64,000 nt of DNA from Nannocystis bainbridge. GTDB lineage: Bacteria > Myxococcota_A > Polyangia > Nannocystales > Nannocystaceae. Where the stretch lies: NCBI RefSeq assembly GCF_028368995.1, contig NZ_JAQNDL010000004.1, positions 1 to 64,000 on the forward strand, in the 5' to 3' direction. Both the position numbers and the translations under genes were made by a program. Within the stretch, counting starts at the first letter, position 1, and each line of letters begins with the position of its first letter. A model generated the notes under the pieces. It worked only from the letters and a program-made list of their open reading frames with translations. It did no database searches and had not been told where the DNA came from. This document shows, in pieces, positions 3,935 to 6,848 of this stretch.

Positions 3935-4561
3935 ATGCCGCCCGCAGCCCGCATCACTGACATGCATGTGTGCCCGGTGCCGACCCACGTCGGCGGCCCG
4001 GTGGTCGTCGGCGAGACCTCGGTGCTGATCGGCATGATGCCGGCCGCGCGCGAGGGCGACAAGCTGGTGTGCGCGACCGGCCCCGACAGCGTCGCCCGCG
4101 GCGAGCCGAGCGTCCTCATCGGCAACAAGCCGGCCGCGCGCCTCGGCGACCCGACCACCCACGGCGGTACGATCGTCGTCGGCTGCCCGACGGTGATCAT
4201 CGGTTCGCTGGCGCAGGTCGAGGCGCTGCGCACCGACAAGCCGTTCTGCGAGGAGTGCGAGAAGGCCCGCAACCGCGTGCTGATCCTCGACCACCGCTAC
4301 CACGACGACGAGCCGGTGCAGGAGGCCGAGTACGAGGTCGAGCTGCACGACGGCACGATCCTCAAGGGCAAGCTCGACGCCGAGGGGCGGGCCCGCATCG
4401 AGGGCGTGCCGGCCGAGCGCGCCCAGGTCACCTACGGGCCCGACGTGCGCAGCTGGGAGCGCAAGGACCAGACGCCGAACCCGAGCTTCGCGGAGTCGTT
4501 CGCCGACGGCGACGCCGACGCGCTCATCGACGCCGTCATGGGCGAGGAGCCGCAGACATGA
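3935..4561 (+). CDS. PAAR domain protein with a roughly 100-aa C-terminal extension.
   Basis: PAAR repeats: ITDMHVCP..HVGGPVV, LIGMMPAAREGD, LIGNKPAARLGD, HGGTIV. Its stop overlaps the next start (ATGA). Confidence 0.9.
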   Translation: MPPAARITDMHVCPVPTHVGGPVVVGETSVLIGMMPAAREGDKLVCATGPDSVARGEPSVLIGNKPAARLGDPTTHGGTIVVGCPTVIIGSLAQVEALRTDKPFCEECEKARNRVLILDHRYHDDEPVQEAEYEVELHDGTILKGKLDAEGRARIEGVPAERAQVTYGPDVRSWERKDQTPNPSFAESFADGDADALIDAVMGEEPQT

Positions 4562-5967
4562 GCGGCGGCAGTTACATGAGCGCCATCACCGACGTCGGTG
4601 ATTGGATCTGGGGCCTCGTCCGCGGCGGCTTCAACGAGCAGCAGTCGATCAGCCAGATCATCGTCGACGCGATCATCGGTATGATCCCCGTCGTCGGCGA
4701 CGTCACGGCGGTGCGCGACCTGCTGGCGGTGGTCATCCGCCTCGCCGATCACCCGGAGCGGCGCCAGGAGACCATGCAGTGGGTCGAGCTGACGATCTGC
4801 CTGTTCGCGCTTATCCCGGTGGCGGGCGGCGCGATCAAGGGCGTCGGTCGCCTGCTCGCGCGGGTCGGTCGCAACGCCGCCGAGGCGGCGCCGGTGCTGC
4901 GCGAGGCGGTCGAGCTGCTCAACCGCCTCGGCTCCGGCAACGCGGTCCGCTTCATGCGGGAGCTCGATCTGTCGCGCTACACCGCCGATCTGCAGCGTCA
5001 CTTCCGCACGATGGTCGGGCGCGTCACCACCACGATCGACGCCATCATGCGCCGCGGTGGCCGCATCCTGCCCAGCAGCATGACCGAGCGGCTGCGCGAG
5101 CTGCGGGCGGCGATGCAGCAGCTGCTGGCGCTCGGCGACCGCATGATCCCGCAGGCGGTGCGCGACCTGAACGGGTGGCTGCGCACGGTCCAGCGCCACC
5201 TGTACGCCGGGACGCCGCACCAGATCCCGTCGAGCCTGCGCGCCGAGACGCGGGAGTTCGAGCGCGGCCTCATCCGCCAGCGCCGGCTGCCGCGGCAGGC
5301 CGAGCTGCCGTTCCCGCCGTCGACGCTCGCCAACTACCGCCACCGCGTGCCGTGGCCCGACCTGCGCACGGGCGGATTCCACAACCCGGCGTGGAACCCG
5401 TACCGCAACATCCGCACCTTCAGCGGCAACCTGCAGGCGGTGGCGCTGCGGCACCCGCGGAAGATCTACCGCATCATCGAGAACGAGGGCGGCCGCTCCG
5501 GCGCGTTCTGGTCGCTCGAGCGGCCGGCCAGCGGCCGCCGCTGGCGCGAGGACTACGCGGTGCTCGAGTCGTGGAACCGCGACGGCTACTACATCGAGTT
5601 CGAGATCCCGCCGGGCCAGACGCTCTACGTGTGGCAGGGCAGGGTGGCCAGCCAGGTCGAGACCGACGCGGCCAAGGCGACCTACGGGCAGGTGCTCAAC
5701 GGCGGCGCGCAGCAGCTGCTGATCGACCTGCGTCACCCGAGCAACGCGTGGGCGACGAGCCGCGTCGAGCGGCTCCCGCTGCACCGCACCGGCTGGCGCG
5801 ATCACATGGGCGTCAACGTGCCGAACGAGCAGACCCGTGCCATCCTGCTCGGGCAGACCGAGCGCGCCCAGCGGGTCGGCACCTACACCGCGGTCACGCG
5901 CGTCACCGGTGCGGGGGTCCGCGGTCAGCAGAGCCAGCAGCGGCAGCAGCAGCAGAGGCGACAGTGA
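4558..5967 (+). CDS. Putative T6SS cargo effector (toxin) of unknown family.
   Basis: 469 aa, translationally coupled to the PAAR gene and followed by two coupled genes. N-terminal GDWIWGLV..IIGMIPVVGDVTAVRDLL motif. The C-terminal region has ExE-like and STS-like motifs (an ART-like reading is speculative). Gln-rich tail. Confidence 0.55.
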   Translation: MSGGSYMSAITDVGDWIWGLVRGGFNEQQSISQIIVDAIIGMIPVVGDVTAVRDLLAVVIRLADHPERRQETMQWVELTICLFALIPVAGGAIKGVGRLLARVGRNAAEAAPVLREAVELLNRLGSGNAVRFMRELDLSRYTADLQRHFRTMVGRVTTTIDAIMRRGGRILPSSMTERLRELRAAMQQLLALGDRMIPQAVRDLNGWLRTVQRHLYAGTPHQIPSSLRAETREFERGLIRQRRLPRQAELPFPPSTLANYRHRVPWPDLRTGGFHNPAWNPYRNIRTFSGNLQAVALRHPRKIYRIIENEGGRSGAFWSLERPASGRRWREDYAVLESWNRDGYYIEFEIPPGQTLYVWQGRVASQVETDAAKATYGQVLNGGAQQLLIDLRHPSNAWATSRVERLPLHRTGWRDHMGVNVPNEQTRAILLGQTERAQRVGTYTAVTRVTGAGVRGQQSQQRQQQQRRQ

Positions 5968-6848
5968 CGGAGCTCCAGACGACCGTTCGGCCGGTCACGC
6001 CAGCCGACTTCCCGCTCGACGATGCGACCCGCGCGCAGATCTTCTATCGCCTGCGCCGCTACGCGTCGCTGACCTACGTCAAGCGCTGCACGCTGCTGCT
6101 GCAGAAGTTCATCGCCGGGTTCGACGCGTGGGCCCGCAAGTCGGGGCCCGATCACACGCAGTTCGCCCGCAAGGCGCTGCAGTCGCTGTACCCGCCGCTG
6201 GCGGCGCTCGAGCAGGTGCCGGGCCTCCTGCTGAGCAATCAAAAGACGCGGGCCTACGACGCGCTGAGCCAGGCCGGCTTCCTCACCGAGCTGCTCGGCC
6301 AGGGCTTCGACGGCGGCATGCGCTGGGAGCCGTTCGGCTACAACTACGGCGAGCGGCCGAGCGTCGGTCTGTTCGCGTGGGCCGAGAAGGCGCTCGAGAT
6401 GGCGGCGCAGATGCAGCGCACCGCCGAGGCCGGGTGGTCGCTGTCGCTGATGGCCCTGCAGCGCCCGGCGCCGCCGCACGCCCACCTCGAGCCGATGCCG
6501 CGGGCCGACGGCATCGTCATCGATCCGGACGAGGACGTGCCCGTCACCGGCGTGTGGGTGCCGCTCGACGTGCCGTACGGCTGCCCCAACTTCCTGGTCG
6601 AGGGCGTGCCGGCGCCGCTGCTGTCCGTCGAGACCCAGCGCGTCGACGCCGAGGGCTACCCCGGCGACCCCGAGAACCCGCCGATCGCCGCGCGCACCGA
6701 CTACGTGTACGAGGAGCTGCCGACCCGCTGGCAGCTGGCGTGGGACGACATCCGCTACCGCGCCGGCGTCGAGATCGACGAGCCCGAGTTCCTCGACGAC
6801 GAGACCGAACTGCCGGTGTGGCCGCCGGCCCACCCGCCGTCGCCATGA
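5964..6848 (+). CDS. Hypothetical protein, candidate immunity protein.
   Basis: GTG start at 5964 overlapping the effector stop. 294 aa with no recognisable domain. Confidence 0.5.
   Translation: MTELQTTVRPVTPADFPLDDATRAQIFYRLRRYASLTYVKRCTLLLQKFIAGFDAWARKSGPDHTQFARKALQSLYPPLAALEQVPGLLLSNQKTRAYDALSQAGFLTELLGQGFDGGMRWEPFGYNYGERPSVGLFAWAEKALEMAAQMQRTAEAGWSLSLMALQRPAPPHAHLEPMPRADGIVIDPDEDVPVTGVWVPLDVPYGCPNFLVEGVPAPLLSVETQRVDAEGYPGDPENPPIAARTDYVYEELPTRWQLAWDDIRYRAGVEIDEPEFLDDETELPVWPPAHPPSP

Follow-up and report, generated by a model that had tools for sequence, protein, structure and literature searches.

Bacteria attack one another with, among other potent weapons, T6SS NADase effectors; five families of these, Tne1-5, have been defined one by one. 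Effectors of the Tse6 class are prePAAR/Eag-chaperoned: the PAAR domain and an AARxxDxxxH motif lie within the effector itself, and a DUF1795 (Eag) gene is found next to it. Among TNT-type and Tne enzymes a glutamine near the C-terminus of the domain is strictly conserved, at Q822 of TNT, Q387 of Tne2, Q413 of Tse6 and Q1452 of Rhs1CT. TNT-type NADases have a strictly conserved C-terminal glutamine together with essential aromatic and arginine residues, and they have no catalytic glutamate (PMC6398120, PMC10539506). Here we describe a locus of Nannocystis bainbridge whose toxin is predicted, from a structural model, to be a weapon of this known kind, acting by NAD(P)+ destruction, in a new, widespread and unnamed sequence family.

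The immunity partner leads to a second body of work, which involves a different fold, BECR (barnase-EndoU-colicin E5/D-RelE). Imm71 and Imm72, 'often fused', entered the catalogue of immunity families in 2012 (Zhang et al., 2012; PMC3482391). For the toxin paired with them, Ntox48, the prediction was an RNase of the BECR fold with a conserved pattern of R, [RK], Q, Q; this toxin was recorded from acidobacteria and from beta- and gamma-proteobacteria with T6SS among its delivery routes, and the example of a reference sequence is gi 251789613 of Dickeya zeae (PMC3482391).

Operon organization and distribution of the gene pair

The window, which is the whole stretch of 64,000 nucleotides analysed, carries on its forward strand an operon with the order VgrG, PAAR, 469-residue effector, 294-residue immunity protein and FHA-DUF4123 protein. 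Its features are as follows.

1718..3919, + strand: VgrG spike protein, 733 aa (TIGR03361, E 7e-183; Pfam Phage_GPD, Phage_base_V and Gp5_trimer_C)
3935..4219, + strand: PAAR core, residues 1-95 of the 208-aa PAAR protein (PF05488, E 4e-23)
4229..4558, + strand: connector module, approximately residues 99-208, the C-terminal extension of the PAAR protein
4558..5967, + strand: effector, 469 aa, comprising N-module, helical middle region and toxin domain
4591..4947, + strand: effector N-terminal module, residues 12-130
4948..5274, + strand: effector helical middle region, residues 131-239
5275..5832, + strand: toxin domain, residues 240-425, with a movable core at about 282-417; predicted TNT/Tne-type fold
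5964..6848, + strand: immunity protein, 294 aa, with Imm71-like and Imm72 halves
6845..7708, + strand: FHA-like and DUF4123 adaptor protein, 287 aa (PF13503, E 7e-24)

Three of the operon junctions are 4-nt overlaps: ATGA at 4558-4561 between the PAAR and effector genes, GTGA at 5964-5967 between the effector and immunity genes, and ATGA at 6845-6848 between the immunity and FHA-DUF4123 genes. A sequence-only reading of this DNA had proposed the 469-aa ORF (4558-5967, +) and the 294-aa ORF (5964-6848, +) as a translationally coupled T6SS toxin/immunity pair. Both ORFs are present, and the peptide strings quoted from the larger protein are located at residues 14-25, 39-59, 276-288, 304-319, 344-354 and 355-361. 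The GC fraction of third codon positions reaches 0.96 in the called frames vs 0.43-0.77 in the other frames, which indicates that these are genuine genes and not chance GC-rich ORFs.

The effector is 100% identical to an N. bainbridge hypothetical protein, and 'hypothetical protein' is the label that its relatives carry everywhere. The family is common yet unannotated: it is found in genomes of at least 121 species in four phyla, with hosts that include Burkholderia, Paraburkholderia, Cupriavidus, Enterobacter, Pantoea, Yersinia and Cedecea, and it also spans Holophaga, Burkholderiales, Neisseriales and Enterobacterales. None of at least 217 homologues has a Pfam domain over the effector region. 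Scanning the effector itself against Pfam and NCBIfam gave no toxin match and only sub-threshold DUF4112 in the N-module, and phmmer and profile searches of PDB sequences returned chance matches only, such as adseverin and oxidoreductases. No source gives the family a name, and we found neither a characterised member nor a Pfam model of the toxin. Chromobacterium CV_2125 was considered as a characterised relative and rejected: a signal peptide on its immunity protein places the action of that protein in the periplasm.

The assignment of the two genes as a T6SS effector/immunity pair is supported by their sequence context. A T6SS cargo effector is expected to be encoded beside vgrG, PAAR or hcp. 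Here the effector gene directly follows vgrG and PAAR genes, and its homologues lie in core T6SS clusters or are fused to spike and tube components, with an immunity gene adjacent. The Yersinia mollaretii homologue is encoded inside the core T6SS cluster directly 3' of VgrG, another homologue is fused to Hcp (P0075), and a VgrG+PAAR fusion carries the toxin core (P0205). Genomes were scanned with patterns from the full-length effector alignment, the toxin alignment across architectures being too divergent for patterns, and 80 loci were counted. An Imm71/72 ORF lies immediately 3' of the effector in 75 of these, in one to five tandem copies, and the other five loci end at contig ends before the immunity position; the partner gene is thus present at every orthologous locus with room for it.

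The immunity protein and the question of Ntox48

The 294-aa protein had been read as an ORF with no domain, which proved wrong. Residues 178-274 match Imm72 (PF15584) at 35.6 bits, the cutoff being 25, and this half, which in Imm72 is an all-beta region, contains a WDDIRY motif that fits the family motif WxDxRY. Imm71 scores 24.3 bits, below its cutoff of 27, with the Imm71-like half at residues 19-100; precomputed Pfam matches list Imm71 for the homologues P0123, P0132, P0135 and P0137, and NCBI names the identical protein 'Imm72 family immunity protein'. By sequence, then, the protein is a member of the known Imm71/Imm72 immunity family. Neither a signal peptide nor a transmembrane segment is present in it: its maximum hydropathy is 0.97 and its N-terminus is not hydrophobic. 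Since Imm71/Imm72 were catalogued in 2012, the description of the pair as 'novel' holds for the toxin family only.

The toxin itself is probably the Ntox48 of Zhang et al., an equation made by description through pattern, partner and taxa. Residues R305, R330, Q366 and Q386 fit R, [RK], Q, Q, and the Imm71/Imm72 partner, the taxa and the T6SS route are held in common. No Pfam model named Ntox48 matches any of the 35 + 61 members examined, and the two descriptions differ in fold: a TNT-type NADase fold in our model, a BECR RNase in the earlier prediction.

Fold and conserved residues of the toxin domain

A fold search with the full-length AF2 model gave helical-bundle noise and only a weak Tse6 match, and the C-terminal domain was modelled alone to escape this noise. 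The resulting model (pLDDT 88, pTM 0.83) has the 'palm' fold of TNT, Tse6, Tne2, Rhs1CT and AfNADase. Foldseek, one of the checks proposed in the sequence-only reading, returned an enzymatic fold of the TNT/Tse6/Tne2 type, the top five matches all being Tse6, Tne2 or Rhs1CT with probability of at least 0.99, after which the probability falls to 0.01. Sequence identity to the best matches is about 14%; to Tne2 (Pseudomonas protegens) and Tse6/Tne1 (P. aeruginosa) it is 12-14%, and sequence similarity to them is undetectable. Pfam toxin models match none of the 35 + 61 members, profile searches with the toxin domain did not find the Tne1-3 PDB sequences at E values up to 10, and no method used gave a sequence link to the solved NADases or to Pfam Ntox46 or TNT.

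Across all architectures R305, W318, R330, G382, G383 and Q386 do not vary and Q366 and N340 hardly do, and there is no conserved acidic column in the toxin domain. Q386 sits in a GGxxQ motif 5-10 residues before the end of minimal domains. From this pattern, Q386, W318 and R305 are candidate counterparts of the catalytic glutamine, aromatic and arginine residues of Tne2, Tse6 and TNT. On the basis of the modelled fold, the most likely activity of the domain is hydrolysis of NAD+ and NADP+, with nicotinamide and ADP-ribose as products.

The C-terminal half had previously been described as loosely like ADP-ribosyltransferases, with an R / S-x-S / E-x-E arrangement. The likeness stands at the level of the superfamily, within which the domain falls in the TNT/Tse6/Tne2 NAD(P)+ glycohydrolase branch; the motif arrangement fails on conservation. 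In the R-S-E enzymes strand 1 bears an arginine and strand 2 an S-T-S motif, and the catalytic element is (Q/E)-x-E; here S314 is present in 8/105 homologues, S319 in 16/105, E347 in 64/105 and E349 in 8/105, only R305 being conserved. Toxins of the ART fold show functional plasticity, ADP-ribosylation of RNA or protein being the activity of some whose triads are non-canonical; this speaks against the NADase reading. A true ADP-ribosyltransferase, towards which the sequence-only reading leaned and which would modify a protein or RNA target, as Tre1, Tre23, RhsP2 and TreThr do, in place of plain NAD+ hydrolysis, is unlikely in our judgement. A BECR-fold RNase, as predicted for Ntox48, would account for the Imm71/Imm72 partner, the R, [RK], Q, Q pattern and the taxa, all of which are as in Ntox48. 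A BECR fold was not found for the toxin domain, and we give this explanation almost no weight.

A different possibility is that the hydrophobic helices at the N-terminus are the toxic part, acting by insertion into membranes or by forming pores, and that the C-terminal domain is non-catalytic, with for example a targeting or regulatory role. The N-module does contain two hydrophobic segments, has a weak DUF4112 membrane-protein similarity in 34/35 family members (below threshold in each) and is the most conserved part of the effector. However, the immunity protein is soluble and cytoplasmic and not a membrane protein, the C-terminal core keeps invariant polar and aromatic pocket-like residues, and in 80/138 representatives this core stands as a cassette at the very C-terminus of polymorphic toxins that are unrelated and have no N-module, a distribution that marks it as the toxic unit. 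We therefore hold toxicity from the helices to be very improbable.

Proposed loading modules and mechanism

The C-terminal extension of the PAAR protein is, by sequence, a conserved connector module of about 95 residues with the signature 'RYHDDxPV...E.EL.DG...G.LD..G.A'. It lies no more than 152 nt upstream of the effector in 77/80 loci; it is found on the C-terminus of the Yersinia VgrG (E 2e-19), and elsewhere it forms small upstream proteins or is fused to the effector N-terminus. C-terminal transthyretin-like (TTR) extensions of VgrG and PAAR proteins have been described as cargo-binding (PMC11148199, PMC13324451). Like TTR adaptors, such as that of EAEC VgrG1 with Tle1, the connector is a C-terminal VgrG/PAAR extension directly before a cargo effector gene; unlike the known examples, it also occurs fused to effectors or as a stand-alone small protein, and sequence searches of Pfam and PDB gave it no match, TTR included.

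The N-module that follows contains the N-terminal motif singled out in the sequence-only reading, whose conservation is confirmed by 11 invariant residues in 105 homologues (G23, Q33, D37, A38, P44, G47, A51, R53, D54, R69 and G90). Its two hydrophobic segments, identified by hydropathy and helical in the AF2 model, are centred on 37-54 and 80-92; used alone as a homology query, the module retrieved 12 short fragments only. In the model the middle region consists of long helices at residues 138-167 and 173-217, and a TRExE motif with near-invariant E233 and E235 is conserved in this part of the protein. Pfam detects no PAAR domain in the effector, the prePAAR motif is absent from its N-terminus (MSGGSYMSAITDVGDW...), and no DUF1795 match was found among the five operon proteins. 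In contrast to Tse6 and Tne2, which include a PAAR domain themselves and employ Eag chaperones, the PAAR protein here is encoded by a separate gene and the effector is a separate cargo protein, with a dedicated connector module that would take the place of the covalent PAAR link. The immunity proteins are also unrelated, Imm71/72 here vs Tsi6 or Tni2 there. Serratia marcescens Rhs1CT (the proposed Tne3), AfNADase and M. tuberculosis TNT differ again in scaffold, being carried by an Rhs cage, a fungal surface protein and CpnT, and they have other immunity proteins and no sequence-level relationship to the present toxin.

Taken together, these comparisons make it likely that the 469-aa protein acts against bacteria as a T6SS cargo effector that docks through the connector, hydrolyses NAD(P)+ as the model predicts, and is neutralised by the Imm71-Imm72 protein. 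Gene order and fusions suggest that the N-module would dock non-covalently on the connector of the PAAR C-terminus, so that the effector would ride the spike tip. Crossing of the prey inner membrane may perhaps be aided by the pair of hydrophobic helices in the N-module, as has been proposed for Tse6. Residues ~240-425 would then hydrolyse NAD+ and NADP+ and stop growth through cofactor depletion, while the Imm71-Imm72 protein, which is cytoplasmic and translationally coupled to the effector, would bind the toxin and block it inside the producing cell and its kin.

If correct, this would add another family beyond the Tne1-5 T6SS NADase effectors, would give Imm71 and Imm72, orphan immunity families of Pfam, a concrete toxin activity as their counterpart, and would probably correct the 2012 RNase prediction for their partner Ntox48. 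The connector provides a simple sequence marker for finding such cargo beside VgrG or PAAR genes, and a testable example of one effector re-plugged onto different spike components. A broader proposal, which we put forward tentatively and, taken as a whole, regard as possible but doubtful, is that the connector and the DUF4112-like N-module form an undescribed, widespread T6SS loading system and that 'Ntox48' is an NADase family. Whether carried by PAAR, by VgrG, by an Hcp fusion or by a free small protein, the ~95-residue domain would capture and shield the hydrophobic helices of the effector, the role played by Eag/prePAAR in the Tse6 class; the helices would then take the NADase domain through the inner membrane of the prey, and 'Ntox48' would form a sixth clade of the Tne type instead of an RNase family.

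The FHA-DUF4123 protein encoded at the end of the operon was also considered as an adaptor. Adaptor-dependent effectors have a conserved adjacent DUF4123 (Tap-1/TEC) gene, typically upstream. We judged it unlikely that this protein is the adaptor of the 469-aa effector. Tle1-like genes come after the DUF4123 gene at two other loci (L009 and L015). No Tle1-like genes follow it in the window or in L012-L014. Its partner is probably a Tle1-type effector absent from this locus, which makes its tie to the present toxin uncertain. A search with a single-sequence query detected the DUF4123 gene 3' of the effector/immunity pair only in Nannocystis loci, 5' of it in two Polyangiaceae loci and in none of the remaining loci. 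The FHA-DUF4123 protein also shows a weak match to Tla1, the Tle1 chaperone.

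An effector and immunity pair in a vgrG operon

The locus is carried by five consecutive plus-strand genes:

1718-3919, +, VgrG (TIGR03361, E 7e-183)
3935-4561, +, PAAR protein, extended by ~110 residues at its C-terminus
4558-5967, +, effector, 469 aa
5964-6848, +, immunity protein, 294 aa
6845-7708, +, FHA-like and DUF4123 protein

The window has a GC content of ~71%, so that long chance ORFs are common; these five genes are real all the same, as GC3 in the called frames is 0.96-0.97, compared with 0.43-0.77 in the other frames. Four-base overlaps are present at gene junctions (ATGA at 4558, GTGA at 5964 and ATGA at 6845). 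A sequence-only reading had proposed a T6SS effector/immunity pair here; it had the kind of locus right, and the peptide strings it quoted were all found where it placed them. The pair is genuine: a T6SS cargo effector (4558 gene) and its immunity protein (5964 gene).

The 294-aa protein had been described in that reading as having no domain, which is incorrect. Residues 178-274 match Pfam Imm72 with 35.6 bits (gathering score 25), residues 19-100 match Imm71 just under the cutoff (24.3 against 27 bits), and the Imm72 signature WxDxRY is present as WDDIRY. The immunity family (Imm71/Imm72) is already known, and the NCBI name of the protein is 'Imm72 family immunity protein'. Loss of the gene from orthologous loci, which the same reading had raised as an argument against the pair, is not what is seen: in 75 of 80 genome loci the start of an Imm71/72-type ORF is no more than ~200 nt from where the toxin-domain match ends, and in the remaining five the contig ends within 400 nt. 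Many of the 80 loci have two to five tandem copies. Beta-proteobacterial loci (L031, L050, L056, L090 and others) have such sets of two to five Imm71/72 paralogues after the effector, as is usual for arrays of immunity genes giving protection against non-kin variants.

The effector itself has a 100% identical match in Nannocystis bainbridge, annotated as a 'hypothetical protein', and at least 217 homologues, none of which has a functional name or a Pfam domain covering the effector region; a literature search found no paper characterising the family. The toxin is a member of a widespread family without a Pfam model. The same architecture was found by genome scan in at least 121 species, among them four Nannocystis species, other Myxococcota, Fibrobacterota, Holophaga foetida, many Burkholderiales and Neisseriales, and Enterobacterales. 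In Yersinia mollaretii the homologue is part of the core T6SS cluster, with VgrG directly before it and an Imm71/72 gene after it, and another homologue is an Hcp fusion followed by three tandem Imm72 genes.

Predicted fold and probable family of the toxin domain

An alignment of 105 sequences, taken with an AF2 model, divides the effector into three parts. The N-module (residues ~12-130) is the most conserved region; its two hydrophobic segments have their centres at residues 37-54 and 80-92, and 34 of 35 members resemble the membrane-protein family DUF4112 weakly, below threshold. The middle region is made up of long helices that terminate in a near-invariant TRExE motif (E233, E235), and the C-terminal alpha/beta domain (residues ~240-425) has pLDDT values of mostly 95-98. 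The TRExE motif (effector residues 233-235; window 5254-5264) stands where the helical middle meets the toxin domain. The full-length model gives it low pLDDT, and toxin-only architectures do not have it; it is a possible processing or docking site.

When the toxin domain was modelled alone (pLDDT 88, pTM 0.83), the top five Foldseek matches were to Tse6, Tne2 and Rhs1CT with probabilities of at least 0.99, after which the probability dropped to 0.01. PDB 6XTD, labelled 'putative deoxyribonuclease', is Serratia Rhs1CT, which Hagan et al. showed to be an NADase. The predicted fold is that of the Tne/TNT NAD(P)+ glycohydrolases. No sequence method links the domain to the Tse6, Tne2 or Rhs1CT structures or to any Pfam toxin model, and it therefore constitutes a separate sequence family with the same fold.

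An exhaustive profile search returned 764 cluster representatives at E ≤ 0.001. The toxin core (residues ~282-417) behaves as a movable cassette: the layout of the window is found in 38 of 138 representatives carrying it, the N-module with a different middle in seven, and unrelated or absent N-terminal regions in 80, some of them fragments; one representative is a VgrG+PAAR fusion. Across these architectures R305, W318, R330, G382, G383 and Q386 are invariant and W329, N340, W359, G361 and Q366 nearly so, with no conserved acidic column. This pattern fits the description of TNT-type NADases, which have a strictly conserved Gln near the domain C-terminus, an essential aromatic residue and Arg residues, and no catalytic Glu (PMC6398120, PMC10539506); a residue-by-residue equivalence is inferred. 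The sequence-only reading had likened this region to ADP-ribosyltransferases (ARTs), and a distant ART relationship stands. The classical R-S-E triad was rejected, as the S and E positions it had picked are poorly conserved.

The toxin family is probably Ntox48, a computationally named family. Zhang et al. (2012, PMC3482391) reported Imm71 and Imm72, often fused together, as immunity proteins of Ntox48, gave its conserved residues as 'R, [RK], Q, Q', listed T6SS among its delivery routes, and included acidobacteria and beta- and gamma-proteobacteria in the range of the Imm71/72-linked members. The effector family agrees in all four features (residue pattern, Imm71/Imm72, taxa and T6SS). In divergent clades of the toxin core the small genes downstream are different ones that gave no Pfam hit, in line with the listing of several immunity types for Ntox48. 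If the toxin is Ntox48, the 2012 prediction of a BECR RNase should give way to a TNT-type NADase fold. The type of weapon is known; the added interest lies in this likely re-assignment and in the connector module.

The connector module and its proposed part in effector delivery

The C-terminal extension of the PAAR protein (window ~4229-4558), here termed the connector module, is homologous to extensions at the N-terminus of longer effector homologues (BLASTP 9e-24, 4e-21), to the final ~105 residues of the Yersinia VgrG (2e-19), and to two upstream proteins, one of 312 aa (at its C-terminus) and one of 126 aa that stands alone. Searches of Pfam and the PDB gave no sequence match to it. Of 80 loci, 77 have it no more than 152 nt upstream of the N-module, carried by VgrG (34 loci), by the effector itself (14, mostly Fibrobacterota), by PAAR (four, Nannocystis only), or by small, unidentified or contig-truncated proteins (25). 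This constant position with a changing carrier, a pattern like that of Rosetta-stone fusions, argues that the connector would bind the N-module and tether the effector to the spike, similar to the TTR-like adaptors at the C-termini of VgrG and PAAR proteins (PMC11148199, PMC13324451).

The DUF4123 adaptor and neighbouring genes

L009, a 64%-identical relative, and N. radixulma (L015) have a 134-aa ORF and Tle1-like lipase genes after the FHA-DUF4123 gene; next comes the same HAMP histidine kinase that is found at 8074-9054 of the window. Neither the 134-aa ORF nor the lipase genes are present in the window or in three other Nannocystis genomes; in the window the kinase gene directly follows the FHA-DUF4123 gene (gap 7709-8073). 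This gene order, with a weak match to the Tle1 chaperone Tla1, suggests that the adaptor goes with a Tle1 effector which this lineage has lost. The adaptor is intact (~80% identity) in all four genomes and may therefore have a second role. In two Polyangiaceae loci (L017 and L035) a DUF4123 gene lies upstream of a small connector-carrying ORF, ~1.7 kb upstream of the effector; this placement, on the opposite side to that in Nannocystis, may reflect a different loading arrangement.

Other genes in the window are as follows:

43-597, +, ORF whose N-terminus resembles that of a lipoprotein, with five or more 'KKAKKPAITWAGE(A/V)P' repeats in tandem; no match in a Pfam search
762-1664, -, ATP-grasp protein of the R2K clade (PF14243, E 5e-31), divergent and just upstream of vgrG
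10111-11733, +, HEAT-repeat protein (PF13646) containing an internal acidic stretch (DDDDDDDDEAGEGDDEED)
11986-14466, +, large putative secreted protein with a low-complexity linker rich in Thr and Asp and with repeats of a Cys-rich 'CGDG...CD' unit (DUF4215 match), like a myxobacterial cysteine-rich repeat protein
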